64,000 nucleotides of DNA from Octopus vulgaris (taxonomy: Eukaryota). Every line of letters starts with the position of its first letter. Within the stretch, counting starts at the first letter, position 1. Below are positions 26,733-60,025 of this stretch, in pieces. The notes under the pieces are model-generated. The model did no database searches, was not told the DNA's origin, and was given only the letters and a program-made list of their open reading frames with translations. Made by a program: the position numbers and the translations under genes. The stretch covers positions 84,568,001-84,632,000 of the forward strand of contig OX597817.1 in the NCBI GenBank assembly GCA_951406725.2, in the 5' to 3' direction.

Positions 26733-27037
26733 AGGCGTAATGGCCTAGTGGTTAGGGCAGCGGACTCGCGGTCGTAGGATCGTGGTTTCGATTCCCAGAC
26801 CGGGCGTTGTGAATGTTTATTGAGCGAAAACACCTAAAGCTCCACGAGGCTCCGGCAGGGGGTGGTGGCGGTTCCTGCTGTACTCTTTGGCCGCAACTTT
26901 CTCTCACTCTTTCTCCTGTTGGCCTGCTCGCTTAGTCAGCGGGGTGGCATCAGTTGAAGGCTAAAACAATGCGAAGCGCATTGTGACCAGCGATGTGTAG
27001 CAACATCTGATAGCCTGGTCAGTCACGTGATCTCGGG
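26731..27037 (+). mobile_element. tRNA-derived SINE (family A head, alternative tail)
   Basis: A and B boxes. Matches 3684-3865, then diverges. Confidence 0.8.
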
Positions 27038-27045
27038 ATATATAT

Positions 27046-27119
<74 letters not shown>

Positions 27120-27399
27120 CATACATATATATTCTATTTGAAACAGCATCCCCGCAAAAAAGACTTTCATCATAAACGAAAGAAAACACTACGTAAGGAA
27201 TATTAGAGGAACATTCCTGTCAAAATTTCTCACCAAATACAAACATAACAGGTTTGAAATAGTTATTCAGGACAGAAAATATTCAAATACAATTATAGAT
27301 GTCAGCGGGTGGCATCAGTTGAAGGCTAAAACAATGCGAAGCGCATTGTGACCAGCGATGTGTAGCAACATCTGATAGCCTGGTCAGTCACGTGATCTC

Positions 27400-27493
<94 letters not shown>

Positions 27494-27673
27494 CATACAT
27501 ATATATTCTATTTGAAACAGCATCCCCGCAAAAAAGACTTTCATCATAAACGAAAGAAAACACTACGTAAGGAATATTAGAGGAACATTCCTGTCAAAAT
27601 TTCTACCAAATACAAACATAACAGGTTTGAAATAGTTATTCAGGACAGAAAATATTCAAATACAATTATAGAT
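26935..27673 (+). repeat. ~365-bp tandem duplication
   Basis: 26935-27300 is repeated at 27301-27673. Confidence 0.9.
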
Positions 27674-36955: not shown

Positions 36956-37934
36956 TATTCTTACTCCATGTCTTCACTTATTTTTGAAACTATATTGTAT
37001 TTGTTTAATTTAATTAATCAATTCTTCCGTGTTTGTTTCCCTTTTGTTTTAGTTTTTTGTTCCATTGCACGTAGTAGAAAAGTAAATGAAAATAAAATCT
37101 GTACATTGCGTTATATATATATATAACTTTATATATTATATCTACTTTATTAATAGTAATAGTACGACAACAGAAGAATGAATGAGACCTCGACATTATA
37201 TAAATAGAGGAATTTATCTGTAAAATATGTGACAATTATTAGATTGCTATAATAAAACTCCGAGTTTCGGATGTCGGGGCAAAACAAAAATGCTATGAAA
37301 ATGACCGTTAAACAAAGGGAAATTACTATGAAGTTTACCGTTATTAAGACAAACAAAAGAGGTATTAGAATGACCGTTAAATAAAGGGAAAAAACCGGAA
37401 AGGGGAGAAAATAAAAACTGCTCATAGGATTCGCGTATGCGCGCATGTACATACATACACATGCGTGCACGTGCACCCACATACATGTGCATATATACAT
37501 ATGCTCACTCACACACGCGAGCCGACCAAAGCCTTGTGAGTGGATTTGATAGACGGAAATTGAAAGAAGCGCGCGCGCGCGTATGTGTTTGTGTCTGTGA
37601 TTGTCTCTCACCACCGGTTGACAACCGGTGTTGGTGTGTTTACTTATTGTTTTCGGCAGAAGAGACTGATAGAATAAGTACTAGGCTTTAAAAAAAAATC
37701 CTGGGGGTCGATTTATTCTACTAAAACTCTTCAAAGTGGTACCTCAGCATGACCACAATCAAATAACTGAAACAAATAAAAGATATCTTTGGAACAGTAG
37801 ATCTTGAACTACATAAAGCTATAAATAATAATATATAATAATATATAAATATCGGATTAGAAAAAGTCGAAGGACGCGAACTCACATTTCCAAAAGGGTT
37901 TTTCATCTCAATATTTACGTGCTATCAAAGTATT

Positions 37935-38300
37935 GAGTTGGCAGAACCGTTAGCACACCTGGTAAAATGCTTAGCAGCATTTCGTCCGTCTTTACGTTCT
38001 GCGTTCAAATTCCACCGAGGTGGCCGACTTCGCCTTTCATCCTTCCGGGGTTACTAAAATCAGTACCAGTTGAGCACTGAAGTCGATCTACCCCTCCCCC
38101 AAAATTGCTGGCTTTGGGCCAAAATTTGAAACCAATACTTACGTACTATCAAAGCCATGGGAACACAGAACCGTTGGCACGGCGAGCATTTCGCCCGTCT
38201 TTACATTCTGCCTTCAAATTCGACCGTGGTCAACTTCGCTTTCCATCCTTTCTGACCCCTCTTCCGAAATTGCTGGCCTTATGCCAAAATTTGAAACTAA
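37935..38300 (+). mobile_element. SINE family B, two decayed copies
   Basis: Core similarity at 37935-38135 and 38167-38300. Confidence 0.7.
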
Positions 38301-38689
38301 TATTTACATTTTATTATAGTTTTAAGTATTTCGAGATCCACTGTTCTAAAAAAAGGTGTGGTGTGCGTGTGTTTGTGTGTGTGTGTAGGACATGACATGA
38401 TATTTATGTGTATGGATTGCATGCTACAGTGACTATGGAGTGAATATAATACCTTCATAATAATAAGGTAAATGAACTAGATCATTACTTAACCTAGCAA
38501 TATATGACAGATTGTAACAAAACTATATAAGATATAAAGAATGTACTTTGATGTCGATGCATTTTTAAATACTAGTTTCAGTTAATTTGTTTTAAAATAG
38601 CATCATTTTTTTGACACGGGTATACTAATGTATGTGAGTGTGCGTATGGAGGGGGTGTAATCAACAAAAATAATTTTTTATTTATAAAT

Positions 38690-38901
38690 CCAAACTTCTT
38701 CCAGAAAGCCGATCTTAAAAACCAAAAAGATCGCGGGTTCCCCTCTCATCATCTATATCGCTGTTTTGACCGCTTGTTCTTAACAAACAGCAGTTATTCG
38801 GTAAGTTTCTATAGAGACGCTTCGTAACAGTGAAGTAACTGGTAAATATTTTAAATGCAAAAGATGTTATATCAAGGGAGATAACTACAGTTCGCTTTCA
38901 G
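38690..38901 (+). promoter_or_regulatory. Putative promoter, non-coding exon 1 and 101-nt intron of the PIGBOS1-like gene
   Basis: CpG-retaining, repeat-free stretch. Consensus donor CG|GTAAGT at 38801 and acceptor TTCGCTTTCAG| ending at 38901. The TSS cannot be placed. Confidence 0.6.
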
Positions 38902-38912
38902 ATTCGTCAATT

Positions 38913-39086
38913 ATGCGAATTCTTCCTCGTCGTCGACTGAGCTGGGACCAAATAATTGTTGCAACCGTAATCGGCGTGCTTGGTGGAATATATATTTGGA
39001 AACCAAATTTTGAAAAATACAATGAAGAAGTATTGAAGAAGCAGGCGTGCACTAATACTGAGGAATCAAAATCAGAATCGGAGTAG
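38913..39086 (+). CDS. PIGBOS1: PIGBOS1-like single-pass (mitochondrial outer membrane) microprotein, 57 aa
   Basis: Manual translation gives MRILPRRRLSWDQIIVATVIGVLGGIYIWKPNFEKYNEEVLKKQACTNTEESKSESE*. The RRL-x3-Q-x3-AT-V-x-G-x2-GG-x-YI-[FW]-x-P-x-FE-x-Y pattern and acidic tail match human PIGBOS1 as I recall it ([32 protein letters not shown]...). A splice acceptor (ttcgctttcag) ends 12 nt before the ATG. Confidence 0.82.
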   Translation: MRILPRRRLSWDQIIVATVIGVLGGIYIWKPNFEKYNEEVLKKQACTNTEESKSESE

Positions 39087-39599
39087 AAGCAGCTACACGG
39101 ATTAAACTTAACCCCACCTCAAGGTTATTCCAGAACTTATTGATATTTTAGTCTTGAATGCCTCACGTTTTTAAATTTTAGTATTCAAGTCTCACCAATG
39201 GCTCCGCCGAAGTTAAAGATTTTTGGTTATACGTCAATAGTTGTTGTATCTGCTGGCTTTTTTTACGTCATGTATGATGTATATTCCAAGGCTAAACACC
39301 GTACTATCGAGAAAGAAGCTCGTTTGCTCTACCAAAAACGTTCTAAGAGTCAGTATGACCTCTGAGAAAACTTTATTTGTCTATGTCATGAACTCTTTGA
39401 TAGTCACTGTTCTTTTGTTTTCTTCTTTTTACGATTATATAAGTTACTAACAGTGGAAATATTTTATATAAAAAGAAATGCCATTTGATATTTTATGTTT
39501 TTACTTTTATTTTCATTAAATTATTATAGTTATTAAGTATATCAAGATCTCAAGAATTTGAAGGTAACGGAGATGTATCAATGATTTTTTTCCTTTCAG

Positions 39600-39651
39600 A
39601 TATCTACATACCGGTGTAAAGATTTCAAGTTACATTTCAGATTACCGACCG
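39600..39651 (+). other. Candidate 52-nt non-coding exon downstream of the microprotein ORF
   Basis: Strong acceptor TTTTTTTCCTTTCAG| ending at 39599 and donor CG|GTATGA at 39652. Confidence 0.35.
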
Positions 39652-40354
39652 GTATGAAACCAGGGGAGGCAACACTGTATTGATTTATTTACTGTTGTCA
39701 TAAAACAGACGTTATTTCCCCTGAACGTTTTTTTTATCGTTATTATTTGATTTGCAAGATTCTGAATGTGAACTCGTGTATTGAAACAAATTTTGTATTT
39801 TCAGGGAGAGCGGTCATTTTACCTATAATAAACACACGCGCTGGTTCTTTTTTGATTTTTTATTATTCATCAATTGATTTACTTTTTAAAATCATTCAGT
39901 TATGTTTGTCGAAGTCCTTTTCTCTCCAATTATGCGACCTCTTCAATGACATGCTCTCTCTCTCTACTGTAGGTCATCTTCGGCTCTGAGATTGTTTTGA
40001 CTAGCCAAATAATTAATCGAGCATTCATAGTTAAATAGTAAACCAATTGTCGAATGATAAAGAACTGAAATAAAACTAGTGTTTATTATTGGCCTAACGA
40101 GCTACCGAGGTACCACTTAAATTGTTGGAAACTATTAAGCATGTTTTGTTGTTTAACCGTAGGACAGCCCTAACTGATCTATGACGTTGCAGTAATGGCC
40201 ATCCCATCTTTTTCTCATCATCATCGTTTAACGTCCGTTTTCCGTGCTAGCACGGGTTGGACAACTAGCACTGGGCTACATCATTCTTATTGCCACTTTT
40301 TATTGCATGTTGTTATTTTCATTGGTCCTTTTGATTTGACTATATATTATAACA

Positions 40355-40560
40355 CTTGTTTCAAATGTTGGTCCATGGCCAGCAATTTTAGGAGGAGGGA
40401 AGTTGTTCGATTACATTGACTCTTAGTATTTGAATGGTACTTTATTTTATTGACCCCAAAAGGATGAAAGGTAGAGTTGAGTTTGGAGAAATTTGAATTC
40501 AAAATGTAAAGATACTCAAATACCACCAGGCATTAACGATTTTGCCAATTCACCACCTTG
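40355..40560 (-). mobile_element. SINE family B, CpG-decayed
   Basis: ATTGACCCCAAAAGGATGAAAGG core with CG->TG/CA changes. Confidence 0.7.
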
Positions 40561-41548: not shown

Positions 41549-42329
41549 GACGCAAAGGTCAATGCACTTTGCAAATTTTACATGAACCCGATGCAATAAC
41601 TCCACACTGTCGTTAATTTGGGCATATTCACTCTTTATGCATTCCATTAAGTGCATTGCATCTGTGATTTTCATTGAATATAAAATATATAGGTAAAATA
41701 TCACATATAAAATATATATAGCATATATATATAGGTTAAAAATATATAGTTAATGAGATTTCTTGTGTTCAGACTTTAAGGACAACTTGTATATGTATTC
41801 ATATGCAGTAGGGTATTTTTTTTTATTTTGTTTCATGTTGAAATGCTTAGTAATGATATAGAAGTGTCTCTTCTTTTTCAAATTGGTAGGGCGTAATTTA
41901 ATTTCTATTTCTAACAATTGGAGCAACATATAAGAGCTCTGTTGGTTCATTAAAGGATATGCTTTTGATTTATATTGACATCATCTCATTGAAATAAGTT
42001 GGAATCTATATTATTTATTAAAACATTTCACTAGATGTTTACTTTTCTATGAGGTCACTCTATCTGCTACAAACAGCAGCCAAGTCTCTCACATCATATT
42101 CTGAATTTTAAAACCAAAACCTAAAACAAGAAATATTCCTATATACTGATAAAGTCTAACTGCATAGGGCTGACACTTACCATATTAGTGTGGTTGGATG
42201 GTCAGGTGGAACCAACTGACCATGTGCCAGAATTCTTCAACTATTGTCAAAGATTACACACTTCCTTCCATTTATAGACAACAGGCCTTGAAAATCAGGC
42301 CATCTACTACGAGAACCTCGGTTGTAGCT

Positions 42330-42990
42330 ATCAAGTTTAGCACGATGAAAGGTAGATCTTGTGTGATTATAAAGCTGATCAGAGATGAGTAGATGTGTAA
42401 TCCTAGCAAGAAATGAGAGGGAGAGGCACCTCAGCCAGATAACCCCATAGGCAAAGAACACAAATTCAAATTTTTATGGGTAGGTAAAAGAGAGGTAGTT
42501 TTACTTGTGACAAAGAAGCCAAGTACATAAAGTAACCAAAATCAAGGAAAATCAAGATTAAATCATTTGTAAGTAGCACAATGGAAACTCTACTTATGGA
42601 TTAAGACTGACTGATATGAAAAGAATTGCTTTGAGATTCTGTAACAAAAAATATCAATAATAAATGACAACACATTTTCATAGCTGTATGGACATGTCAG
42701 GCAGCCATGATGGCTACTCTGGAGTATACAGTTGTTATGAAATATGGTTCTAGGAATGTTGAGGAGTCACAGTGTTTGAATTTCTGTGATGCAAATAAAC
42801 TAATTCTCTGTAACATAAATTTCAAGAATTCAGTCAGACATTTGATTACCTTTGAAACAGGTGAACATGCAAGGACTTGAGATAAACAGATGGTTGTAAA
42901 TACTTAGTCCTTCCCTTCTTTCATAAAGAATGTACCACTCAACATAGGTTACTGGTAAGTGACTTCCAAATAAGAGACAAAGAAAGATGT
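42330..42990 (+). mobile_element. Decayed RTE endonuclease region
   Basis: STMKGRS..VDV..QEMR..FKFLWVG..EFCDANKLILCNINFK..HLITF. Confidence 0.6.
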
Positions 42991-43113
42991 GGTAACTGAA
43001 ATATTCTAATACTTGTATATAAGGTTTAATTTTTAAAATATTGTAAATAGCGAAAGCATGGTATAAGTCAGATAATAGTTATTTTCTTAGCAAGTTTAGA
43101 GAGATAATATTTA

Positions 43114-43735
43114 TGCCCACTTAAACATGCATGTATTATTAGAGGAAGCTATACTGCAGTAGTTACCATGAGAGAAACTCTCAAATTGACTTTTGGGGGG
43201 CACAAATGCACTCTTGTTTATGCACTCTTATAAACAAGAGTGCATTTTGCACCAAAAGCCAAATCTGCCACGGTATAGTAAAGTTTATTTGCCAACATAA
43301 TGTGGCAGTCCTATACAAGGATGATGTTACTGTCTTTTATCCCCAGGAAAACATATTTTCCTGTTGGCTATTGGCACACAGTTTGTGCCCTTCATCACTA
43401 GCCACTGATTACCTCACACTGAGGACAGGTAACCACTCAGAAACCTAGGTCTGTGAGTATCATGTAAGGCTAGATATGGGAGCGATTACCTCCCTTGCAT
43501 ATACTATACGGGCACAAACTGTGTGCCAATAACCAACTGGAAAAGATGTTTTCCTGGGGCTAAAAGACAGTAACACCATCCTTGTATAGGACTGCCAAAT
43601 TATGTTGGCAAACAAATAAACTTTACTATTCAGTACTGTTACTGCATATCTCTCACTCAGAGATTTAAAACAAGTCGTTTTTCTCTTTACCACACTATAG
43701 TTTATTCTAACAAAACATCCATGTTTAAGTGGGTG
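43114..43735. mobile_element. Fold-back / MITE-like element
   Basis: Inner arms 43275-43390 and 43510-43629, outer arms ~43115-43178 and ~43677-43734. Confidence 0.75.
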
Positions 43736-44689
43736 TGATCTCGGTATCAATACTGCTTCTGTTGCTAATATATATATTTAGAGGATTTAGAATTTCATAC
43801 CATTTTTTAATTTGGAACCATAATTAAATATCAGACACCATCTACTCCAGAATGATATTAGTTTTGCCCAAATAAAGTCATTAGCTTTATAATCATCCCT
43901 CCATTTTCTTCCACTATTCCTGGGAGAGTCATGAGGGTAGAATCCTCAAGCACCTCCCCTTTAAGTTCCTATCAGAAGCAACCATCATTACACTTTTTTG
44001 ACTAGATTCCCATGTGTGGCCATCACAGACTATGGATATTATCCAACTGTTTCATTCTTGGTCTATCCCTGTGTCTCCTGCCTGTTGGCTAGACTTGAAA
44101 AATCCACATGTGATTCTTTCATGTGACATTATAACACATGTCTGTAATACCAGATGTCTCAATATAGAAAAGTAAAGGTCCAACCTGGAGAGATTTCCTG
44201 ATCTCTGAGATATACATCATGTCAAGTAACACTACTCCAGAGATCCTTCAGAGGAACCCAATTACCTTACAATTTACATTCACTTATTCAATCATTGTAA
44301 GTATAGGCATGTGATGAAGAAGCTTGCATTGCAACCACATAATCCTGAGTTCAGTCCCATTGCAGAATATCTTGAGTAGTTAGTTATCAACTATGATGGA
44401 AATTTTCATTGATAGAAATTTACATTGGTTGGGTCATGTACATAGGATGAACAACAGACTCCCCAGATAAATCCTTTACTCCCAACTATGCAAGGGGAAA
44501 AGAAACCTTGGAAGACCTAGACTGAGATTCAAAGATTTGCAAAAAGGAAAATGAAGAGGAAAGGAATCGATCATAATAAATGGCAAACCCAAACAAGGTC
44601 CAATGCTTGAAAAGAACTCAGCCTTTTTGCCTCTGTGAGGCCCAACACTCAAAAGGTGCTCTTTACGCACCACTAACACAGATGCCAGT

Positions 44690-45160
44690 TACATGACACC
44701 AGCATCAGCCATAACTATGATTTCACTTGGCTTGACAGATCTTCTCAAGCACAGTGTATCACAGAGGACTTGTCACTAGTCATTGCCTTTGCGAGATTCA
44801 AAGTTCAAAGATCATACTTCACCACTTTGTCCAATGTCTTCCTGGGTCTATCTCTACCACAGGTTCCCTCCACAGTTGGAGATCAGCACTTCTGTACACA
44901 GTCATCCTCATCCATGTGCATCACATAACCAAACTAGCGCAGTCATCCCTCTTATGCCTAACTATTCTCTCAAGATGCTTACACTCTGTCAAACATGCAC
45001 ACTGACATTGCACATCTAGCGAAGCATACTGGCTTAATTTCTTTCAAGCCCAACCATGTCCTCAACTGTCACAGCCCATGTTTCACTGCCATATAGCATA
45101 GCTTTTCGTACACAGGCATCATACAATCTGCCTTTCACTCTGAGAAAGAGGCCCTTTTTT
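44690..45160 (-). mobile_element. RTE LINE 3' fragment
   Basis: KGRLYDACVRKAMLYGSETW..LERN and GRDRPRKT motifs. Confidence 0.75.
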
Positions 45161-45199
45161 GCCAGCAGCAGCAGCAACAGTGGCAACAACAACAATAAT

Positions 45200-45860
45200 A
45201 GGTACAGTTCCGAGATCTCACGTCCACAGTAATATATTGGTTGTACTGAAAATTCATTCAAGAAACATTTTTCCTACCATCAATCCTCCCTCAGAGTCCC
45301 GGAAAGGAGATATGTAACATCACTGGCCATCCATGTTTGGCAACTAAAAGACAATGGAGTACCACACTTGATCTCAAGAAAAATCCTCAAAAACCCATGC
45401 CCCTACATCGATGGGACGAACACTGCAAGTTATGCATAGCTGAAGACATGAGAATCCTAAGGGACTCACTTGAGCCAGGGACTATACTTAACTCCAGAAT
45501 AGAGATTTTGAGGCCATGTTTGCACTTTAGGAGATTTCTCTGCTGGCCTTTTGGGAACCACCAGAAGTTGATAGCTAATGGGAGAGGCAGATAATCCCCT
45601 ATCATTTACTCTCACAGCTGATCAATGACAGTGCAGCCAGAAGTCAATAGCCATTGGCAAAAGGAGATAATCCAGACTTTCTCCTCCATATTTTAAAGAG
45701 CTCATAGGTCAACAGGTCTTGGGGTCTGACGATATGCCATAAAGTTAAACCCTTTATGGATGGGAAACCCAGGGTAACCCCATAAACTGGCCTTCACCAG
45801 GGAAAAATATAGACTGCTCTACTTCTAAGAGTGTGCTTCTCTGGATTTATGTTTTTCTAA
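45200..45860 (+). mobile_element. Penelope-like element: GIY-YIG endonuclease remnant + pLTR with hammerhead
   Basis: YIGCTENSFKK..YHQSSLR..TSLAIHVWQLKD..CKLCIAE..LNSRIE..CLH, followed by a hammerhead. Confidence 0.85.
45721..45781 (+). ncRNA. Hammerhead ribozyme (type I, canonical core)
   Basis: GGGGT-CTGACGA-TATG-CCATAAAG-loop-CTTTATGG-ATGG-GAAA-CCCAGGG-TA-ACCCC. Stem I GGGGT/ACCCC, GUA triplet. Confidence 0.8.
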
Positions 45861-46075
45861 AACTTATATATATACATATATATATATTATATTATATAAT
45901 TAGGGCTCAGTAAAATAATTTACTTTACCACATACTGAAACTTTTAGAAATAGCAGCCAAAAAGTTTTTTAGCCATTTCTTCTACTATAAGAAAAGTCTC
46001 CCAGATAGTGTTTACTCAAAAATAATTCCCGTAGATATGGAGGGGAAAACAAAATATCACATGTACAAAGATCAT

Positions 46076-46138
46076 TTGAGAACGTTAACGTTTCTAGATT
46101 AGTCGAATTAAAACTCGACATTTCTTTCGTCAGCTCAA
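46076..46138 (-). ncRNA. Hammerhead ribozyme (canonical core)
   Basis: TTGAG-CTGACGA-AAGAAATGTCGA..TCGACTAATCTA-GAAA-CGTTAACG-TT-CTCAA. Stem I TTGAG/CTCAA, palindromic stem III. Confidence 0.78.
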
Positions 46139-46345
46139 CATTTCTTAATTTGGATTTGAAAGCACTAAAAATTGAACATACCCGTCTGATATGAGTAACC
46201 TCAGACAAATCATCTCCAAACTGCCAGTGCCAGCAAATTCAAAAAGTACGAGTGAAGATTGGCTGCTATTTCTAAAAGTTTCAGTATGTGGTAAAGTAAA
46301 TTATTTTACTGAGCCCTAATTATATAACATAATATTTTGAATATA

Positions 46346-46650
46346 CATCATCATCGTCATTGTTCGACCGTGGTCGAGACAATGGAATTTACCATGCTAC
46401 GCCAGACTTCACGGTCCATCATGGCATTACGGAGGTCCTGTTGCTGGATGCCTGTATCCCTGGAGATTACATCAGGGTAGGAGAGTGTGCGCCCTCTGGT
46501 ATTGCGAGTAGATGGCTTCCAGAGGAGAAGAGTAGAAATTACTTCTTTTTCAGCTCTACAACAATGTCCAGCAAACTGGACTCTCCTACCTTTCACAAGA
46601 GATGACACAGGTGGTAGTTTCCCATATATTTGCATTTTGGTTGGATGGCG
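46346..46650 (-). mobile_element. RTE LINE 3' end nested in the pLTR array
   Basis: RRVQFAGHCCR..LLLWKP..RGRTLSYPD..DREVWR with a (GAT)n tail. Confidence 0.8.
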
Positions 46651-46936
46651 CTTTTACATACTGAACACTACTTGGTGAAATTAATTAATAATTAATTGAT
46701 TTTACCCTTTTATTATTGATAATACAATTCCTTTCTCCCTGTTCTTTACTGCGGTTCTCACCGTAATAATCTGTTTACTCTATAACTCACGTGGATGGAA
46801 GCAGGAAGAATACGAATCTTCACTCATACTTTTTGAATTTGCTGGCACTGGCAGTTTGGAGATGATTTGTCTGAGGTTACTCATATCAGACGGGTATGTT
46901 CAATTTTTAGTGCTTTCAAATCCAAATTAAGAAATG

Positions 46937-46998
46937 TTGAGCTGACGAAAGAAATGTCGAATTTTAATTCGACAATCTAGAAACATTAACGTTCTCAA
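46937..46998 (+). ncRNA. Hammerhead ribozyme (second copy, one stem III CpG decay)
   Basis: TTGAG-CTGACGA...GAAA-CATTAACG-TT-CTCAA. Confidence 0.72.
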
Positions 46999-47283
46999 AT
47001 GATCTTTGTACATGTTATATTTTGCTTTTCCCTCCATATCTACGGGAATTATTTTTCAGTAAACACTATCTGGGAGACTTTTCTTATAGTAGAAGAAATG
47101 GCTAAAAAAACTTTTTGGCTGCTATTTCTAAAAGTTTCAGTATGTGGTAAAGTAAATTATTTTACTGAGCCCTAATTATATAACGTAATATTTTGAATAT
47201 ACCTTGAATGGTCCTTTTACATACTGAACACTACTTGGTGAAATTAATTAATAATTAATTGATTTTACCCTTTTATTATTGAT

Positions 47284-47318
<35 letters not shown>

Positions 47319-47321
<3 letters not shown>

Positions 47322-48919
47322 TATTATAAAAGGCAGATTTTATCTGCCTCCCTTTGGGAGTTATACAAATCTACAATATAGGATTTCTTCAATTACAATT
47401 TACCTAGCATTTTTAAGAGTACAATGCATCGCGTCATGCCAGGTCCAGTTTTTAAAATTTAAACTCCAATTAAGCAAAATTTACAGAAAACTCACATTCT
47501 GGTGTGTGCGTCAAATGCTTTTCTTAGTCTGGTTTACACCACACGCAAACGCACACACACAGTGTGCAACGAATAAAATGAAAGTAAATAGCGACAGTGA
47601 TTTGAGGAAGACTAAACTGAAAGTATTTAAACCACTACTCAAAAAATAAAAAAACACAGCAAACAGAAACAAATAAATACATAACCATTTACTCCTCACA
47701 CAATTTCTTCAATTAGAATTTACCTAAGATTTTTCAGAGTACTTCAGTGGGTGATGCCATAAAAAATTTCTTTCAATTTTACCACCAATTAAGACAAAAT
47801 TCGAGAAAACTCAATATTTTAACATATCACTCCGAAAGCATTGATGTACATGTGTGCGTGAGTGAGTGTGTGTGTGTCATTCCTCACACACATGCATACA
47901 CATACATATACAACTACATACACATACAACTACATACAAACACGTGTGTGTTTGTTATTAGTAAAAAAGGCGCCAAATCACAACTCACTTATCATTCCAA
48001 CACATTTGCAAAGACACACGGACGGACAGAAAAGGTAAATTGGTTTTTATTTTACTCTGTATATATTTTATTATATAATATTATATATAGATATATGTAT
48101 ATATAATTGCAGTATGAAACAGTGTTTATGTATAAACAGACGACACTTATATATAGTTATTATAATAAGAGATTAATAAATGTATGCATCCGTTTAACCC
48201 TTTCGTTACCAAGCCGCCCGAATTTACCTATTCATATTTAAATGAGAATATCAGAGCAAATCTCTTTAGTACATTCGTGAAAACACGTATTATACTTCGT
48301 AAACACTTCAACTACAGTTTTGTACAAAAATCGAAGTGTAATTTTAATTCCGTGAATTATGGGAGATTTTTTTCCGAAATTTGTTCCTATTGTGTTTTCA
48401 AAATTTGTAATTCTGACAAAAAATGGATACGAATTTCATTATATCAAGCAGCGAGTCAGAATTCGAAGGATTTTCTACTGAAGACCTTCATAAATCTAAC
48501 TCTATGACTGAAAAAAAAAAAGCATCTTTATATAAGAGTGAAGTTGTGTGTCTGTCTACTACGATTTAGATTCCTAACTACTCCCACATTTTGCGGTGCA
48601 GTTTAACCAAAAGCGGGTATCTTATAGTCGTGATTCATATCGAGCCCTTCTGGGTATTAGCGTGCGTCTACGATGAGTCTACGATTTAAAAAAAATTTAC
48701 CATCATATTTTTCCATTTTAATGCATTTTGTTCGCTTTTATATAAGGGAAGTAACTCTCTAAAAATATCTACGATGTGTCAACGATTTAAAAAAAAATTT
48801 ACCTTAATTTTTTTTCAATTTTTAATGCATTTTTTTGCTATTTTTTGGCTATAACTCTCTAAAAATGCTTATATAGTTATTTCCCTTACAACCCGAGCAA
48901 CGCCGGGCGATACTGCTAG
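47319..48919 (+). mobile_element. Non-autonomous composite Helitron
   Basis: A|TC 5' end, 3' hairpin CCCGAGCAACGCCGGG (48892-48907) and CTAG|T. Second TC-type head at ~48525 and internal direct repeats. Confidence 0.75.
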
Positions 48920-49094
48920 TATATATATATATGTATGTATATATATTGCACAAAAACAAAACAGGTAGTGAATTAATTTCATAAAAAAGAAAAGAAAAGA
49001 AAAGCAAAAACTAGTTTAGTCATGTGTAAAGTAAGTAACTTTATCTTGTACAAGGCATATTAGATTTTTGTGATACACCAAGTGTCTTTGAGAC

Positions 49095-49428
49095 AATTTA
49101 CCAGAAATATAGCATCAGTGGTGCTTCTCCCTGGCACAAAACTAAACTGCATCTCGTCTAAGCTAACTCTCTCCCTAATTAGTTGGGCTATGACTCTCTC
49201 TGTAACTTTCATCACCTGATCCAACAATTTGATACCTCTGTAATTATTTCTGTCTAAGGCAGCACATTTACCTTTGTAGCAGGTGATTATAGTGCTGCTA
49301 TACCAATCATTGGGAATGACTCCTTTGTGAACCAGCTGATTTACAATACGGGTGACTAGACCATAACCTACACCACCATATATTTTAAGCAATGCAGCAG
49401 TGATTCCTGATGGGATGGGGGATTTCCC
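49095..49428 (-). mobile_element. RTE RT internal fragment flanked by ~150-bp direct repeats
   Basis: GKSPIPSG..IPNDW..YKGK..NYRGIKLLDQ..QFSFVPGRSTTDAIF. Confidence 0.8.
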
Positions 49429-50210
49429 TATATATATATATCGCACAAGAACAAAATAAAACATGTAGTGAATTAAATTCATAAAAAAGAAAACAACTAA
49501 AACTAGTTTAGTCAAGTGTAAAGTAAGTAATTTTATCTTGTACAAGGCATATTAGATTTTTGTGATACACCAAGTGTGTCTTTGGTACAGTCTTCAAGAC
49601 AATTTGGCTGTTTTCTGACAAAAAGAATACAATTTAAACATTTTATTTTTTTAATTTTGAAGAAAATAACAGTATACAATTTCATAATGATTGTCAAAAA
49701 GAGTTATTGAGATTCTATAATGTTTTGTTGGTCTGCTTTTTTTATTTATTTTTTTTTTTTGTTAATATATTGAATTTCTTTGCTTGTATCTAAACTTCAT
49801 AATAAAAAGAAAAGGTTGGAGGTTTATATAATAAGCTTTCATTGAAGATATTCTTTTTTAAATTTTCTTGTCCATGTTTTTGACTGCTTTTTCAGTATGA
49901 GCTTGTTTGCACTTATATATATATGCACACACAGAGTCTGTATGTTGAATCATAAAACTTAGTATATATTTTACAAATATTTTACATTAAGATAAACTGT
50001 AAAGTTAAATACAATAGCCATTTCATTCAGTAACATTTCTTAACTGTTATCTCATCTTAATTAGTTAATAAACATTTTTTAGAAAGGTGGGATGGTCTGA
50101 AATATAAATAAAATAAATGGTGAGTTGCATTATTTCTAAAAGATTGTATTTTAAAATTTCTCAAGCTGACACTCAAGCCTTTCATCGTTGACTTCCTACA
50201 TATACATACA

Positions 50211-50248
<38 letters not shown>

Positions 50249-50806
50249 TGTGCATGCATACATATATATTTATGCATATATATATGTGCGTACATACCTA
50301 TATTTATTCATAGACAGATAAATGTAGATACATACAGGCAGGCAGGCAAGTGTCTTCTACTATAGCCTTAGGTCAACCAAAGTCCTGTAAGTGGATTTTG
50401 TAGACAGAAAGTGAAAAAGTCCCTCCTATATATGTGCGGTGGTGATGGTGGTGGTAGGTGTATGTGTGTATCCCTGTATTGACATCATGTGATGACTCTA
50501 AATGAGTATCTTCATCATACAAATGTGGTTGTTCATTTCCAGTCTTCCATGAAAAAAACATCTCTGGCCATGGGGAAATATTACCTTGCTTGGAAAATGC
50601 AACAAAGGTTTGGCAACAAGAAGGACATCTCACTGGCTCCCTGGCTGAAGGATATCTACCTCAACAAACTCCATCTGACCAATGCAATGAATATGATAAA
50701 GTGGACATTAAGCGTCTGTGATGATGATAGGTTTTCTACTCACTAGACAGCCTGGCAGATGCTAACACTGCTTTGTTGTTTTCATTCATTCAGGGATTAA
50801 AAGAAT

Positions 50807-51238
50807 AACCCTTTGACATTTAACCCTTTCGATACCAACCTGGCTGAAACCAGCTCCGACTCTGAGTACAAATGTCTTGTTTTCATAAGTTTTGAATTAA
50901 AATCTTCCACCAAACTTGAGTCACAATTTATGTTCCTAATACTAGCTGAATGATAACTAAGTTATTTTACTAAATTCTTTGTTATTAAAGTAATTGAAAG
51001 ACACACAGAGCATCTCAAAATAAATACAGTAATGAATGGGTTAAACCAGCCATATTCATCCCACCTGTTTTATATCCAAACTGACTAGATCTAACCTCTC
51101 AAACCTACCCCACTATGTCCTTCTAGTAATAAACAGTCACATTATCAAAGTCTCAAGACTTTGAAATAATAAATTAATTCAAAATAATGTAAATAAATAA
51201 GCATTACATTTGACAGAGTAATCTGAATGCTAAAGGTC
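50807..51238. mobile_element. Nested piggyBac-type MITEs
   Basis: Inner element TTAA|CCCTTTCGATAC..GTAATGAATGGG|TTAA (50824-51040) sits inside an outer CCCTTTGACATT..AATGCTAAAGG element. Related decayed copies at ~54330-54662. Confidence 0.65.
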
Positions 51239-51239
51239 A

Positions 51240-51660
51240 CTTTAGTTCTGGTAGTGACTCAGCTATTAGAGCAAGGTCATTAGCATAGAAGAGCTTTTAG
51301 GGGCAGCCTGTCTTGAATTCCTCTGTTATTGCCTGGAGGACTATGATGAATAAGAGAGGGCTGAGGACTGATCCTTGGTGAGCCCCTACATCTACCCGGA
51401 ATTCTTCACTATAATCATTGCCAATCCTCACCTTACTATCAGCGTCCTTGTACATGGCTTGTACGGCTCTTACTAACCACTCATCTATCCCTACTTTCTG
51501 CATTAACCACCAGATAAGGGATCGGGGAACCCTGTCAAAGGCTTTCTCCATGTCAATGAAAGCCAAGTACAAAGATTTATCTTTGGCTAGGAATTTCTCC
51601 TGCAGCTGTCTTACCAGAAATATAGCATCAGTGGTACTTCTCCCTGGCACAAACCCAAAC
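51240..51660 (-). mobile_element. RTE RT fragment
   Basis: GFVPGRSTTDAIF..AFIDMEKAFDRVPR..GAHQGSVLSPLLF. Confidence 0.85.
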
Positions 51661-53560
51661 GCACACATATAATTATACACACATATTTACTCTATCCTTG
51701 TACTTTGAGGGTACTTCCTAACACCTCATCACCATCTTTTTCTCTATCTTTTCAGCAGATGTAAAGATAGTAATAAATAAAGAAGATACTGTAAAGGATA
51801 TACATGGTTAAGGTCAAGCAATTGACAAGCAAATCAGTGGTATTGAGCAGAATATTAGCTACAACGATAATTCTGCTTCAGCAACTCAGTACTGAATCTG
51901 TGTGAAATGTAATGCAAAGTAGGTCAGTTTCAAAATATTGATGTCCAGGTCACAAAAGCAAAGTTTGAAAGAAATAATACGTCATTTCCTTTAATTTCTA
52001 AACAGAAGTAAATAGGAAATAACACTTACTGACCAAAGACAAGAAAAATTAAAATTTTGTTATACTGTGTAATTTCACCAAGGTATCGATGAGAAAAGGT
52101 TTCAAGTCCTACACAGCTTTCACATTTTAAAAATATTTTTATTCCTTTCCATAGGAGATGTCATTGTATTAGCATATTTTACTTTGTTTAAAAATATGAC
52201 TACTCTTCACTCCCTCCAAATGTAACCAATGGTCTATTCAATTTAATTTAACTTATTTATTCGAGCTAAAAACTAGTATAACGCTATTTGCAATATGTCC
52301 CTTACAACCTATCACCAGAGGCTATTTTCCAGTTTCCATCTACTAAATTCACTCACATGGTAATGGGCAGCATACAGTGGAACTGAACCTGAAACCATGT
52401 GACTGGGAAGCAAACTTCTTAAGTACACAGCCATACCTGGATGTTATCAAATGGTTAACCAAATAATCAACTAAATAAAATTAAATGTCTAATTATCTCA
52501 CAGAGGTAAATATGTAAGAAATACAGTTGCTAAGTTAAGTATACTTATTAAGAAGCAATATAGTAAATAAAGAATAAATGAAAGCTTTAAATTAATTTCA
52601 TAGAATATTTCTGTAAGTTTTCACACCAGAACTTTGAAGAAAATTACTGCTGAAAAATTTGAGAAATTTTAAAAACTTTTTAATATTATTATTAATTTTA
52701 ATGTTCACTTTGTCATGCTTGCATGGGTTGGATAGCATTTATTGAGACAGATTTTCTGTGGCAAGGTGCCAACTTTCATTTATAGCTAAGTAAGGTAATA
52801 TTTTCCCCATGGTCAGATATGTTTTTGCAGAATACTAGAAATGAATGACATTCATTTGTAGCCCACAAGGCTTTGGTGAGCCTGGGAATACAATAAAAGA
52901 CACTTGCCCAATGTGACACACAGTAGGACTGAAACAATAGAGTTGAGAAGCAAACTGCCTAACCACAGGACCATTCCTGTGCCTAGTCATATAACTATGA
53001 TGAGAGTGTAAAGTTGTTTCTTTTAAATACCAATATAAACCAACAATTGTAATAAGTTACAACTAGAAATACATTCTTATAGTTTATTTTTAAATCACAT
53101 GTTAAAATGGTTTTTAAACTTTTTAAATTTATTTTTTAACTTATATTTCCCCAAAATGTCAGATAATATATTATATAAGATAGGTAACATTGTATAGCTT
53201 CATATGCTATAATGTGTATATTATGTGCAATATATACATCCATACACACACACAGTTCTGTTCACTTGTTGATAAGATCAGCAAAAGCAGTACTCAATCC
53301 AGCAAGAGATGAATATCCTTTAATAAATAAAAAAGTTATTTATACATGAGCTACCTCAAGTTTTATGCTCAAATAGTGCAGTAACTTAACAGTAAAAGGC
53401 AGCTTGTATAGCATAGCATGCAGGATTCAGCTATTGTTCAGGCTTGCAAAAAACATTTGAGCCTGAATAATTTTCAAATGATGCACAGCACACTATACAA
53501 GCCTGTATACAATTAATGCACTAACCAACCATGAAACTTGATATAGATTACATATAATTC

Positions 53561-53630
<70 letters not shown>

Positions 53631-53839
53631 AATTACTAAATAATATAATTAAATAATTTTTATTGAAATTCACCGGTGAACTGTATTGTTAAAAATACAA
53701 AAGTTCTTTCTCAAAAACTTATTAATCAATGACTAGTGTGCAGGGTTTATTGTGTGTGTGTACATTTTAAAAATAAAATACAGATGAAAATACAGAAAAA
53801 GGATGATGATAATAATAATAATAATAATAATAACAACAG

Positions 53840-54037
53840 TTTCAATTTTTGGCACAATGCCAGCAATTTCAGGGAAGGGGCTTAGTCAATTACATCAACC
53901 CCAGTGCTCAACTAGTACTTGTCTTACCAACCTCAAAAGGATGAAAGGCAAAGTTGACCTTGGCAGAATTTGAACTCAGACGAGATGCTGCTAAGCATTT
54001 TGTCTGGCATGCTAATGGTTCTGCAAGCCCACCACTT
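53840..54037 (-). mobile_element. SINE family B, CpG-decayed
   Basis: AAAGGATGAAAGGCAAAGTTGACCTTGGCAGAATTTGAACTCAGA. Confidence 0.75.
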
Positions 54038-54814
54038 TAATAATAATGATTATTATTATAATAAATAAAATACATTATGTCTGTTAATGTCAACTTTAAA
54101 TGTCTTATAAACAGAATAATTTACAAAAGAATAAGAAATTTAAACAGCGTCTGATGGAAAATATCAAAAATGGAAAATACACAAAAATTTATGAATTATT
54201 TTGTTTTTATGAATACTTTTTAAATATTAGATACAGTTTTTTTTTCTTTTATAAACTGTTTGGAAAGAAAAGAAGTAAAATGAAGCAATAAATACATTTT
54301 GTTTTAAATAGATATTCCAAGCGTGATGTGAACTGTTTTAAAGTGATCTAAAAAAAAAACCTTTCATCAAAATTTCATGTAATTTATGTTCTTAACAAGG
54401 GCTTAATAATGAAATAGTTATTTTACTAAATTCTTCAATATCTTCAAAATTAATGGAAACAAAGATAGTGAATGGCCAACAGAAATATGATAATAAAAGT
54501 GTTAAAACTATCAAAACTGAGACTGTCTTGAGAACTTCATGCTAATCTATGTTCTAAACACCAACTTAAAAATGACAAAATTATTTTACTAAATTCTCCA
54601 ATACTTTCAAAATGAATTGAAACAAAATGTATTTCATCAGAAACATGGTAACAAAAGGGTCAATCTTATACCCAGAAGAACAAATGAATTATGTATAGGA
54701 GAGTGAATGGATAGATTTCATTTTTGTGAATATGACTTTGAATACATATATATATACATACATATGCATAGCATGGAAAACAGATGCTAAATGATGATGA
54801 TGATGATGATGATG

Positions 54815-54855
<41 letters not shown>

Positions 54856-55190
54856 TATATACATATATATACATATATATACATATACATACATATACAT
54901 ACATACATATATATACATATACATACATATATATACATATACATATATATACATATACATACATATACATATATATATACATATACATATATATATATAT
55001 ACATATATATATACATATATATACACATATACATACATATACATATATATACATATACATATATATAAATATATATACATATATATACATATACATACAT
55101 ATACATACATATACATACATATACATATATATACATATACATACATATACATACATATACATACATATACATATATATATATATATATAC
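54815..55190 (+). repeat. (TA/TACA)n compound microsatellite
   Basis: Seen directly. Similar tracts at 60025-60303 and 60790-61060. Confidence 0.95.
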
Positions 55191-55657
55191 AATTATAATT
55201 AGGGTTCAGCTAATTGCTTCACCACATACCGAATTTAGAAATAGGAGTTAAAATTCCTTTTCTGCTACTATAAGAAACTCCATGATGGTAAACATACTTT
55301 TTTACAAATGCAAAGAGAGAAAACAATGAATCAACATGACCAGGATTAATTATATATGCGTTTCGAGATTAAAGTAATTTAAATTAAATTACTTTGATCT
55401 CGAAATGCATATATAATTAATCCTAGTCATGTCGATTCATTGTTTTCTCTCTTTGCATTTGTAAAAAAAACTATGTTTACCGTCATGGAGATTTTTATAG
55501 TAGCAGAAAATGAATTTTAACTCCTATTTCTAAATTCAGTATGTGTTGAAGCAATTAGCTGAACCCTAATTATAATTATGCGGATAATGTACTGATCTAC
55601 TTGGTAAAATTATTAATTAATTAATTAATTTAATTAATAAGTATTACCCTTCTATTA

Positions 55658-55660
<3 letters not shown>
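55191..55660 (+). mobile_element. ~390-bp palindrome + tail (fold-back Penelope-like pLTR)
   Basis: 55191-55380 mirrors 55386-55578. Terminus and tail are related to 45893-47285. Confidence 0.75.
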
Positions 55661-55699
<39 letters not shown>

Positions 55700-56606
55700 A
55701 CTGGGTATGCATGTTATATGTGTATGTAATAAACCACCATCACAAATGAACACTGTAGGTTTTCTGTTTAAGTAAGACATCAATACTGTTCACATGGTTT
55801 CAGTTTTAACTTAGATGATAATATATCATCTTTGAAATATTCTTTAAAAAAAATACTTTCCCTAACATTAAACAATAATTTAAAGTTAACATAAAGGTGA
55901 ATTTGTTATAGAAGGAGAGCAAAAACAATGTGGAGGGGAGGAAAGAATTCAATGAATTACAGGTTAATAGTTTTATTTTTGTTTGATTTTTTTTTCATAT
56001 GTTTCAAATATGAGATCATTTGTTAATCAAAATAAACTAAATCCACTGAAAGATGTTTTCAGAGGTTAACAAAGATATAAACATTTTCAAGTTTAAACAT
56101 TAGAATAGAAAACACTGAAATTTCTTTTGTGCACATTTAAGTCTCTTTTCTTTTCTTTTTCTTTTGGAAGGACAAGTACTCCTGTTGAAGAGTACTTATA
56201 ACATCAACTGTCAGGAATAACAAATAAAACAGAACCATTTTTTTTTAAACTGGGTATGTGTGTATGTGTTGAAGTTGCAATTCCTTATAAAGGATTAGTA
56301 ATTTCAAACAAGGCTGAAATATTCAGTCGTCAATTCAATCAACATTCACCAACCTGCAATAAACAAACCAAGGATAAATTAATAAATAATAGATTTTTGA
56401 ATACAATAGATCAAAAACAAAAATTCTGACACAATTAAAGAAAATTATTGCTAATTTGTTGTTGTTGCTTATTCCTAGCTCAATCCTTATCAAGATACAA
56501 CCAAAAGTATTCCAGCCATGGCCACTCTGTCTTTTTAGGGATACATCTATGAACATTGTACATTATTTACATTTGACAGATATTTGTCCTCATCTTGTTT
56601 GTTGTT

Positions 56607-56652
56607 AACACAATGTTTCAGCTAATATACTCTCCAACCTTCATCAGGTGTC
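56607..56652 (-). ncRNA. Hammerhead ribozyme motif, CpG-decayed
   Basis: GACAC-CTGATGA-A-GGTTG..TAGCT-GAAA-CA-TT-GTGTT. Stem I GACAC/GTGTT. Confidence 0.55.
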
Positions 56653-56699
56653 TTGGGGAAATTTTGAACCTAGGTTCTCATTTCTAAGGTATTTTTTTC

Positions 56700-57400
56700 T
56701 ATCAGTCCAACACCAGGCTAAAATCAGAATTCATTGGACCAGAAGGTAGTATGATCCCAGAGTCAGAGTTGGTGCATGACCTGAGGGTTCACATGAGCAA
56801 TGATGCAACATTCCACACACATATTACCAAGATAGCAACACTGTGCAGGGAAGTGGCTGGCTGGATTCTGAGGACATTCAGAACCAGAAAAAGGGAAGCC
56901 CTGCTACCCCTATGGAAGATTTTTGTTCTCAGCTGATGGACTGCTGCTCCCAACTATGGTCTCCAGAAAGTGTGAAACAAACTGTGGAACTTGAACCAAT
57001 CCAGTGCCAATACACAAAGAAGATTGACTCGATCCCAAAGATGGGCTACAGGGAGAGGCTAAAGGAGCTGAGTCTCTATTCCTTGGAGAGATGAGAGAGA
57101 TATGCTGTGATATATATTTGGAAGATCTTGGAGGGTTTAGCTCTCAATTCTGGAATTGACAGCTATACCAATCCTTGAACTGGACAGCATTGCATCATAC
57201 CAAAGATCCTGTCTTCTCAATCTAAAATAAGGACACAGTACAGCAACAGTTTGGGTTTCAAAGCCCCACAATTGTTCAACATCCTTCCAGGCAACCTTCG
57301 TTAGTGTTAATTTGTAAGTTTTCATGGAACATCTGGACAGGTTTCTATCTGAGATACATGCGGCAGGAAACACAAAGAAGAGCAGCTCCATCCAACTCGG
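56700..57400 (+). mobile_element. CR1-type LINE 3' fragment
   Basis: VHDLRVHMS..GWILRTFRTR..CCSQLWSP..YRERLKELSLYSLER. Confidence 0.8.
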
Positions 57401-57411
57401 TATACATATAG

Positions 57412-59808
57412 ATATAACTTTGATAGGTTTCAGCCAGTATAGGCCCAGGCCATGTCTAACTTAATAGCACCACCTGGTAAAGTCTTTTAGTCATATATGG
57501 GGTACCATAGCCCACTCTAGCAAAGAGTTATTATTGTTGGAGACATATCCAGGTGTAGGAGGCTAGTCTGGGATTTTTGGAGGAAAGTGGTCCACTGAAC
57601 ATTTGAATTTTATGGAATCCGTTTCTGTTTTGACATATTTTGGTATGGTATTAAAGAGAGCTGGACCAGTTGAGATAAAGTAATTGTGACATAATGTTGC
57701 TATGTGTACTGAGTTTGATTTTTGTAGTGGGCGGATAGCACTGGGGCCAAGTCTTGGATGGATTTTAAAATTGATGCCAAAATCATTTGTGCAATATTGA
57801 TGGAATATTTTCTACATAACACAAATGATGTAGCACTCCCAGTGGCATTACTGAGAGTAGAGATTGAGTTTTTTTAGTTGACCCCAATAATCAATGCCTC
57901 TCATGCTGTCTATCTTTCTTGTTATTGACCACTGAAGTGCTTCTACTTTCATAATAAGCTGCTTCGTATGGGGGGCGGTGACCACAGTGGGCAACAGTAT
58001 TCAAGGTGGAGTTGGGCAAAAGTAGAATAAAGAAGGATGATGGTGTAGGCATCTCTAGACCAGAAAGTTCTCAGAATCCAGGTGCACATCTTGCTGTTTA
58101 CGTGGGAATTCCAGCTTAGATTGTTATCAACAATTACTCCAAGGTCTCTGGTTTTGTTGGATGACACTAGAGAGTCACCTGAGGGAAGAGCATATAGTAA
58201 TTTCAGAGTTTCCTCTTTTCCAAAGTGGACCAAATCAAACTTATTTTCATTTAAAAGCATATTGTTTTTTTCTGCCCATTAGACAATAGCAACCAGATCT
58301 GACAGAAGGTATGTTCGGTCTCTCATGCTGTTTGTGGCTTTCTGGAGTTTGGAATCATCTTCATAGATTTTCAATGTAGAATGTTTGATGACATCTATGT
58401 TGTTGATGTAAATAATGAAGAGGAGTGGGCCCAAAACAATACCTTGTGCGACACCACTACTGACTTTGGCTGAGCTGGATTGTATTCTCTCAAACACAAC
58501 AAGTTGGGTTCTGTTCATCAGGAAACACTTTATCCACTGCAGCAACTTTCCACGAACTCTAATGTTGGACAGCTTCTTCAGCAGGATTTTGTGGTCCACT
58601 CTGTCAAATGCCTTGCTGAAATCAAGGTATATGACGTCAGTTTTGGAGCTCTCTCCCAATGCTTTTAAGATGTCGTCAAAATGGTGCAGAAGCTGCGACA
58701 GTAAGTCCCTGCCATCATGGAAACCATGCTGGTCGGGGTTCAGCAGATTGTTGTCTTCGAGGAAGTGAGTTATTTGCGATCTCACCACCCTCTCAAATAC
58801 TTTAATGATATGAGAAGTGAGTGAAATCAGACGGTAGTTCACTGCAAGAGATTTCTTTCCGTTTTTGAAGACTGGAAAAGACTGGGAAAGAAAATGATCA
58901 GGAATGTAGCCTGCATCAAGTGAGTTTCTCCAAAGCTCAGCTAGAGGGGGTGCAATTTGATGTCGACATCTTCAGGACAGTGACCGGGAACTTATCAGTA
59001 CCTACTGCTGAGTTGTGCTTGATCTTATCTATTTCTGTTAGGGTATCAGAAGCACCAAGTGTTATATCAGATATGGTTAGTTGAGAATTTACATCACTGT
59101 TACTAGCCAGATCAACCGCATTAGCATTACTGAAGACAGAGCAGTATTGTCTCTACAGTATCTCATACATGGATTTTGCATCATCATGAAGAGTGTTATC
59201 CTCATCAACCAGACGACCAACAGTGGAAACAGTGTCTTTATGTCTTTTTTGCAAATGAAAAGAACAGTTGGGGACTGAGTTTTATTTTCTCAATAACCCA
59301 ACTCTCCTCATCTGCTCTTTGACTATTAATGATGGTCATCATGCTTTTTTGGAGGTCATGTTTTTTCGATTTGAGTGATCCAATGGCAGTCAAATGAGCA
59401 TATTGCTGCAGGCAGTATTTCAGTTGGTTGATTTTCTTGTTAATTCTTTTTATTTTTCTGATAATTGCTCTTCTATTTCTAGGGATTCTGCACTTAAATT
59501 TGTATACTGATCTTAATGGAGTATGTTTTGCTCATATATTTGTCACAGTATCTACAAATGACTGTCATGATGTGTTTATGTTGGAGGGGGAGTGTGCATG
59601 CATGAAGACTGAATCAACTTGTGAAAGATCATGATTGATCGCATCCGACTCTGCGTTATGAAGATCCATAGTGTCAAATGGATGGACTGGATTTGATCTT
59701 TGGGTGGTAGAATCTCAGATCACAGTGAACCATGTCCTGGTCTGAGAGTAGTGGTGTTTTTTACACTGCAATATTGAGGATAGTGTCAGTGTGGTTACTG
59801 AACACCAG
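57412..59808 (-). mobile_element. CR1-type LINE (RT + 3' end), decayed
   Basis: NYRLISLTSH, QHGF, YLDFSKAFDRVDH, SGVAQGIVLGPLLF, YEDD, RDLGVIVD and HLEYCCPLWSP motifs. Confidence 0.9.
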
Positions 59809-59931
59809 GTATATATGTACATACATACATATATATATACATATAGGGAGAATTCATAAAAACAAAAGACGAAGAATGATGGTGTAGACAACAAACAGAT
59901 GTATTAGTTTAACACTCGGGAAGTGAAAAAG

Positions 59932-59969
59932 ACTTTAACATTTTGAGCCTACGATCTTCCACAGAAAGA
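59932..59969 (-). ncRNA. Decayed copy of the variant minimal hammerhead (CUGUGGA core)
   Basis: Minus strand TCTTT-CTGTGGA-A-GATC-GTAG-GCTC-AAAA-TG-TT-AAAGT. CGAAACG has decayed to CAAAATG. Confidence 0.45.
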
Positions 59970-60025
59970 AACAAGGAGCGAAAATAAAGAATGTGTAGTG
60001 GCTAGCGATCTATCATGGCGAACGT

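Follow-up and report, generated by a model that had tools for sequence, protein, structure and literature searches.

The question raised by this locus is whether it encodes one microprotein or two. The window (the whole 64,000-nucleotide stretch of Octopus vulgaris DNA that was analyzed) had received a first-pass annotation in which a PIGBOS1-like gene ending at 39086 was taken to encode a single protein; a second single-helix ORF lies beyond that end, at 39198-39365, and points instead to two ORFs in one transcribed unit. A further invertebrate PIGBOS1 would be ordinary, as the family already has a Pfam model and a studied fly member, and it is the second frame (ORF2) that counts. The reading favored here, with moderate confidence, is that one spliced messenger yields the PIGBOS1-family ORF1 and ORF2 as separate proteins, both predicted to reside in mitochondrial membranes; that location would follow for ORF1 from its family and for ORF2 from its layout and neighbors. 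The features on which the argument turns are as follows.

38740..38800, plus strand: predicted non-coding exon 1, with no ATG, ending at a GTAAGT donor; 38740 is the boundary given by the first-pass annotation, and the exon lies outside the three putative RNA contigs
38801..38901, plus strand: predicted GT-AG intron of 101 nt within the 5′ leader; 38842 is another possible donor, and one putative RNA contig starts exactly at 38902
38913..39086, plus strand: ORF1, PIGBOS1-family microprotein of 57 aa (Pfam PF23670; homolog P0001 84% identical; no listed change in sequencing run X19)
38940..38999, plus strand: residues 10-29 of ORF1, its one predicted transmembrane segment (from hydropathy; P0001 differences inside it are I/V swaps)
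39087..39197, plus strand: spacer of 111 nt, with ATTAAA at 39101, a 7-codon ORF at 39158 and acceptor-like AGs ending at 39133, 39151 and 39181
39198..39365, plus strand: ORF2, predicted single-pass membrane microprotein of 55 aa and of no catalogued family (from a layout test, X19 changes and ESM)
39219..39275, plus strand: residues 8-26 of ORF2, its predicted transmembrane segment (hydropathy mean of 1.63 for the best 19 residues)
39366..39725, plus strand: 3′ UTR; CATAAA at 39699 is a variant poly(A) signal, and untemplated A residues follow 39725

The description of ORF1 as a 57-codon frame with one hydrophobic segment between a basic N-terminus and an acidic tail holds: the frame is present at 38913-39086, its best 19-residue Kyte-Doolittle mean is 1.52 (starting at residue 10) while that of the tail is -1.74, and its net charge is +4 ahead of the segment and -2 behind it. 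The proposed likeness to PIGBOS1 was borne out by profile search, in which hmmscan against Pfam matched ORF1 to PF23670 (PIGBOS1) with an E-value of 6.9e-14 and 52.2 bits against a cut-off of 27, aligning residues 6-54 on model positions 2-51 of 54. The sequence thus compared supports ORF1 as a new member of the PIGBOS1 family. The single homolog, one candidate designated P0001 (57 aa, also a PF23670 match), comes from read assemblies and is 84% identical to ORF1; the nine differences comprise three I/V swaps in the helix and six changes in the tail, a pattern of coding constraint on ORF1, and the two proteins are identical from right after the helix through residue 39. When compared ungapped and by eye with the fly PIGBOS sequence as printed in PMC12740097, 19 of the first 39 residues are identical. 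The exact ORF1 sequence is absent from a collection of ~15 billion proteins, which fits an unannotated gene and agrees with the earlier supposition that this one had been overlooked. A two-sequence profile (ORF1 with P0001) recovered P0001 alone and no further PIGBOS1 relatives, and none of 592 pattern matches from a metagenome search for such relatives proved to be one.

ORF2 is laid out like ORF1: a brief basic stretch leads into a single hydrophobic segment near the N-terminus, and a long charged tail follows. The net charge of ORF2 is +2 before the segment and +4 after it. This layout was quantified with a signal-anchor test that asks for hydropathy of at least 1.5 starting within the first 16 residues, followed by a tail of at least 15 residues with a mean of -1.0 or less. 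The two strands of the window together hold 141 ATG ORFs of 45-80 aa, of which only three pass, namely ORF1, ORF2 and one microsatellite artefact, and none of 5000 dinucleotide shuffles passes for either of two stretches. This shuffle result is flattered, since the hydropathy threshold began at 1.8 and was brought down to 1.5 once the real ORF had failed it. Length by itself is much less telling, as shuffling the UTR yields an ATG ORF of at least 50 aa in 771 of 5000 cases (and shuffling the second stretch in 253 of 5000). GC content by codon position is 33-45% within ORF2 versus 25% just after it. ESM Atlas recognition of ORF2 is 2593, where 2300 is reached by 9 of 100 shuffles, and its ESM neighbors are small eukaryotic proteins that include DUF4748, SMIM20, CEBPZOS and UQCC3 clusters (0.82-0.89; leads only).

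Comparison with run X19, a large DNA-like run that carries another organism label, gives 12 listed changes over 38400-39539, with two more counted but unlisted. No listed change falls in ORF1, and both of those in ORF2 are synonymous, so that neither protein is altered by them where 3.7 replacement changes would be expected for the two ORFs together under neutrality (P 0.025). For ORF2 alone 1.8 replacement changes are expected, and the P value of 0.16 (or 0.06 with the rate taken from 38700-39539) makes this a weak signal.

Searches for relatives of ORF2 gave nothing comparable to P0001. No Pfam family matched at E-values up to 10 with HMMER filters on, PF23670 and PF15932 included; no homolog was found by word search at 30-97 aa or in the PDB; and of 306 pattern matches in metagenome contigs none was confirmed. 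A search of 1.84 billion representatives likewise gave no homolog, and its one match, P0002 (a fungal protein of 1455 aa, E 6e-5, with no passing stretch), was rejected as BLASTP gives no alignment. The lack of a homolog is weak evidence, because ORF1 too is missing from the collections. An overlapping 58-aa ORF at 39274-39450 was set aside: it has weak sub-threshold Pfam matches only, both X19 changes alter its protein, and it fails the layout test. ORF2 is judged with good confidence to be a real, presumably translated, protein.

The next consideration is whether the two ORFs belong to one transcribed unit. Of 24 listed sequencing runs, 20 hold at least half of the sampled words, and none is on record as RNA. 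Four were aligned, comprising X19 and three runs from three studies that were guessed to be RNA. Each of these putative RNA runs, whose RNA label is a guess, provides one contig with 0 differences (38907-39803, 38902-39483 and 38921-39725), and in all three the two ORFs and the spacer are crossed without joints, though a contig over two ORFs does not prove one transcript. The contig that spans 38921-39725, from run X14, ends with 8 A residues that are absent from the genome, 21 nt past CATAAA. The spacer is in frame with both ORFs and is closed by a second stop, TGA at 39141-39143; its predicted RNA fold is unremarkable (z 0.01). Between the starts of ORF1 and ORF2 there are only two ATGs, which open 4- and 7-codon frames, where 5.2 would be expected (a mild scarcity). 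The ORF1 ATG, with A at -3 and C at +4, sits in a middling context; the ORF2 ATG has C at -3 and G at +4.

Upstream of ORF1 the first-pass annotation had placed a clean GT-AG intron, a claim that stands for the sequence signals but not for the splicing itself. A 101-nt intron with a GTAAGT donor (G38800|GTAAGT) and a TTTCAG acceptor ending at 38901, 11 nt ahead of the ORF1 ATG, is present; the chance of a GTAAGT within 300 nt is ~9% at the rate of the window. Its removal would take out the ATGs at 38855 and 38864, the sole ATGs between 38647 and the ORF1 start. The 38800-38902 joint is, however, not listed in the three putative RNA runs, where exon 1 and the intron have no cover; neither point is taken to speak against the intron. 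The DNA-like run X19 continues upstream through the intron, whereas each of the three putative RNA contigs has its start at the acceptor or shortly past it; these contig starts are a weak hint in support of splicing. The contig that starts at 38907 carries 21 further letters that do not align on the intron. The last five bases of exon 1 (38796-38800) are the same as the first five of exon 2 (38902-38906), a repeat that can blur placement of the junction and may bear on the contig that aligns only from 38907.

The window is rich in repeats and in AT, as fits an animal genome. The surroundings of the locus had been described as a short, repeat-free island that retains CpG. The locus is indeed single-copy: blastn within the window finds no second copy of 38400-39740, TRF reports one weak 2-copy array only in the same interval, and X19 depth is at a single-copy level of 5.7-9.9 over the covered part of 38400-39538, compared with 2036 and more than 1,000,000 in bins just beyond. 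CpG is also retained, with an observed/expected ratio of 1.26 at 38% GC around the locus, but this is less special than described, as 99 of 1274 windows of the same size score as high and retention spans the whole of 36.5-40 kb. The more notable feature is the border with a CpG-poor domain that begins at ~42 kb; from 42000 to 60000 the CpG ratio is ~0.03-0.3 in most 1-kb bins, versus 0.4-1.35 in the first 40 kb. This domain looks like a methylated gene body just downstream, so that the start of a long gene, or else its end, may lie close by. Strong sites of acceptor type end at 39599 and 39972, and no exon that Pfam recognizes was found in the frames scanned. A Pfam scan of 112 selected frames of the window revealed no host or neighboring gene, giving three transposon-type matches and a weak DUF5464 match, and Rfam has no match in 38400-40400.

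Several repeats were observed in the window. Past the 3′ end, 39744-39803 and 40204-40264 are short and hugely abundant repeat pieces (X19 summed depth ~2,000 and more than 1,000,000), probably SINE-type elements, and 37930-38330 holds two partial copies of a dispersed repeat with more copies at 5.1, 12.5, 36.7, 36.9, 40.4 and 53.9 kb. RVT_1 frames lie on the minus strand at 58279-58971 (E 7.6e-23 for 58282-58971) and 49060-49551 (E 0.0014 for 49063-49551); a further minus-strand reverse-transcriptase frame at 8207-9944 was recognized by eye alone. On the plus strand, 2922-3260 is a Tc5 transposase DNA-binding piece (E 1.2e-4). A near-exact tandem duplication of ~365 bases, real or an assembly artefact, surrounds a TA microsatellite (26958-27206 and 27323-27580).

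With these elements in place, two proteins could arise from a single message as follows. With the non-coding exon 1 spliced to 38902, the first start on the message would be the ORF1 ATG, which lies 11 nt into exon 2, and ribosomes that skip ORF1 (leaky scanning) or resume after it (re-initiation) would reach ORF2, since the ORF1 start is middling and only two ATGs intervene. For making both proteins, leaky scanning or re-initiation on one mRNA would be the simplest route. Few animal mRNAs naturally encode two proteins, and the proteins so paired often function together. The bicistronic arrangement would work like a kind of gene already known from Drosophila sloth1-sloth2, orthologs of SMIM4 and C12orf73, for which leaky scanning on a bicistronic transcript is shown by reporters (PMC9681215). 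The likeness consists of two single-helix microproteins of ~55-80 aa that share a transcript, on which leaky scanning can give access to the second; the differences are that sloth1-sloth2 belong to other families, that their spacer is 5 nt versus 111 nt here, and that bicistronic translation in the octopus is a deduction from the layout of the message. Among the matches listed in a literature search, which covered little of subscription papers and figures, no description was found of a two-ORF PIGBOS1 transcript or of a PIGBOS1 exon with a second membrane microprotein.

Both proteins could instead be real with ORF2 made from an mRNA of its own, exon 1 being spliced to the acceptor ending at 39181, 39151 or 39133, such that one promoter would give two single-protein messages. 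An acceptor-like TAG does end at 39181, which leaves 16 nt to the ORF2 ATG; 9 of the 14 bases upstream of this TAG are pyrimidines, and no other AG competes with it. The ATTAAA at 39101 could terminate an ORF1-only message; and short 5′ branches are dropped by assembled contigs. Such a joint is, however, not listed in the three putative RNA runs, whose contigs cross the spacer unbroken, and with nine acceptor sites of like quality in 1.2 kb the motif is cheap in AT-rich DNA; we regard this account as unlikely. A somewhat different objection is that the gene is an ordinary single-protein PIGBOS1 and ORF2 a chance frame in its 3′ UTR, as might be argued from the failure of every search to find an ORF2 homolog, from the 771 of 5000 UTR shuffles with an ATG ORF of at least 50 aa, and from the description of human PIGBOS1 with one ORF in PMC6814811. 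Yet the combination of helix and charged tail occurs in 0 of 5000 shuffles, both X19 changes are synonymous, ESM recognition is high, and absence from the collections says little when ORF1 is absent likewise, so that a chance frame appears quite improbable.

Fusion of the two ORFs into one two-helix protein as in fly, through read-through or a small intron that removes the stops, is suggested by their shared frame and by the single 129-aa chain of fly PIGBOS given in PMC12740097, but is very improbable: two different stops intervene, no donor of at least 7/9 consensus lies within ORF1, and no joint is seen in the three putative RNA runs. Read-through fusion in particular was rejected on account of the two stops. 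As to origin, ORF2 might be an old tandem duplicate of PIGBOS1 that has diverged past recognition rather than a counterpart of the C-terminal half of the fly protein. The two ORFs share size and layout, their alignment score of 27 is reached by 72 of 2000 shuffles, and related ORFs occur in 44 of 196 fly bicistronic genes according to PMC9681215. Against this, ORF2 has no PF23670 match at E-values up to 10 (HMMER filters on), it lacks the glycine-rich core seen in the ORF1 helix, and the score may reflect shared layout alone; a duplicate origin therefore carries a low probability.

The favored reading of two separate proteins from one message leads to the question of what they might do. On the model of human PIGBOS, ORF1 would sit in the outer membrane as a signal-anchored protein whose tail faces the cytosol. 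The likeness to human PIGBOS1 as set out in PMC6814811 extends to length (54 aa versus 57 aa for ORF1), a single N-proximal helix, a charged tail and the PF23670 match; it would also take in the two-exon plan, in which a non-coding exon 1 (predicted here) precedes an exon 2 that holds the entire ORF. The difference is that the octopus exon carries a second membrane-type ORF. In that paper Chu et al. (2019) report no human paralogs of PIGBOS1. Among the 112 selected frames (part of the frames of the window, in which short exons can be missed) PIGB was not found. Vertebrate PIGBOS1 is the opposite-strand neighbor of PIGB. The Pfam family of CLCC1 has invertebrate members. In human cells PIGBOS modulates the unfolded protein response and has CLCC1 as its binding partner; PIGBOS residues 30-36, right after the helix, are required for that binding (PMC6814811), and a 2026 preprint adds calcium handling to this role. 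ORF1 might act in the same way, binding a CLCC1 ortholog where ER and mitochondria meet and so adjusting the unfolded protein response and calcium flow, as would agree with a PF23670 match over the whole model and with identity of the post-helix stretch (that of CLCC1 binding at human 30-36) between ORF1 and P0001 through residue 39. This is doubtful, however, as CLCC1 orthologs are said to be absent from invertebrates (PMC10313822) and CLCC1 has 0 occurrences in the fly PIGBOS paper (PMC12740097). Transfer of the human CLCC1 and unfolded protein response function to ORF1 is thus uncertain; the only known partner of PIGBOS is reported missing from invertebrates, and a partner of ORF1 other than CLCC1 is likely.

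Comparison with the fly protein suggests where such a partner might be sought. According to PMC12740097, Drosophila PIGBOS (CG34310) has 129 aa and two predicted helices, of which the first is PIGBOS1-like and the second is called unique to Drosophila by the authors. Each half alone reaches mitochondria there, whereas puncta and self-association are seen with the full chain only, and mitochondrial clumping requires it (same paper). In the fly protein a second helix with a charged tail comes after the PIGBOS1-like N-terminal half, the position and layout that ORF2 has in octopus; the fly has one chain, while here two ORFs are split by two stops. By eye and ungapped, ORF2 residues E38, A41, L44, Q46, S51 and Q52 align with fly E104, A107, L110, Q112, S117 and Q118, but the hand-summed BLOSUM62 score of ORF2 against the fly second half is ~25 in each of two registers, a value that lacks significance and does not exceed that of ORF1 against ORF2 (27). 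Position and layout therefore suggest a common origin of ORF2 and the fly second half, a homology that the sequence does not show. By analogy with the two fly helices in one chain, ORF2 may be a co-expressed partner of ORF1 in organizing mitochondrial contacts; complex prediction for ORF1 with ORF2, run without an alignment, gave a score of 0.02 that counts neither for nor against an interaction.

DUF4748 (PF15932) provides a further comparison, being the family of the top two feature neighbors of ORF2 (0.89 and 0.87), which come from mostly arthropod clusters of 56 and 63 aa and are thus of similar length. Both values are below 0.9, shared features number 159 and 156 (the guide value is 170), 2 of the 10 best family-bearing matches agree, and hmmscan gives no match, so that a relation of ORF2 to DUF4748 is a lead only. 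DUF4748 proteins in Pfam are typically ~114-139 aa, which as a lead would fit a fused insect form. The literature search, made mostly without subscription papers, found no mention of DUF4748.

These comparisons allow a broader and more tentative proposal, namely that PIGBOS1 possibly had an ancient partner microprotein in invertebrates, encoded as two ORFs on one mRNA here, fused in the 129-aa protein of Drosophila, and lost or separated in vertebrates. If this is true, ORF2 is the free form of the supposedly unique second helix of the fly protein; were ORF2 that unit, the published view of the helix as a fly invention would be revised. A co-encoded membrane microprotein is moreover a direct candidate for the PIGBOS partner in invertebrates, and ORF2 would, on the same proviso, name the missing non-CLCC1 partner through which PIGBOS organizes mitochondria.
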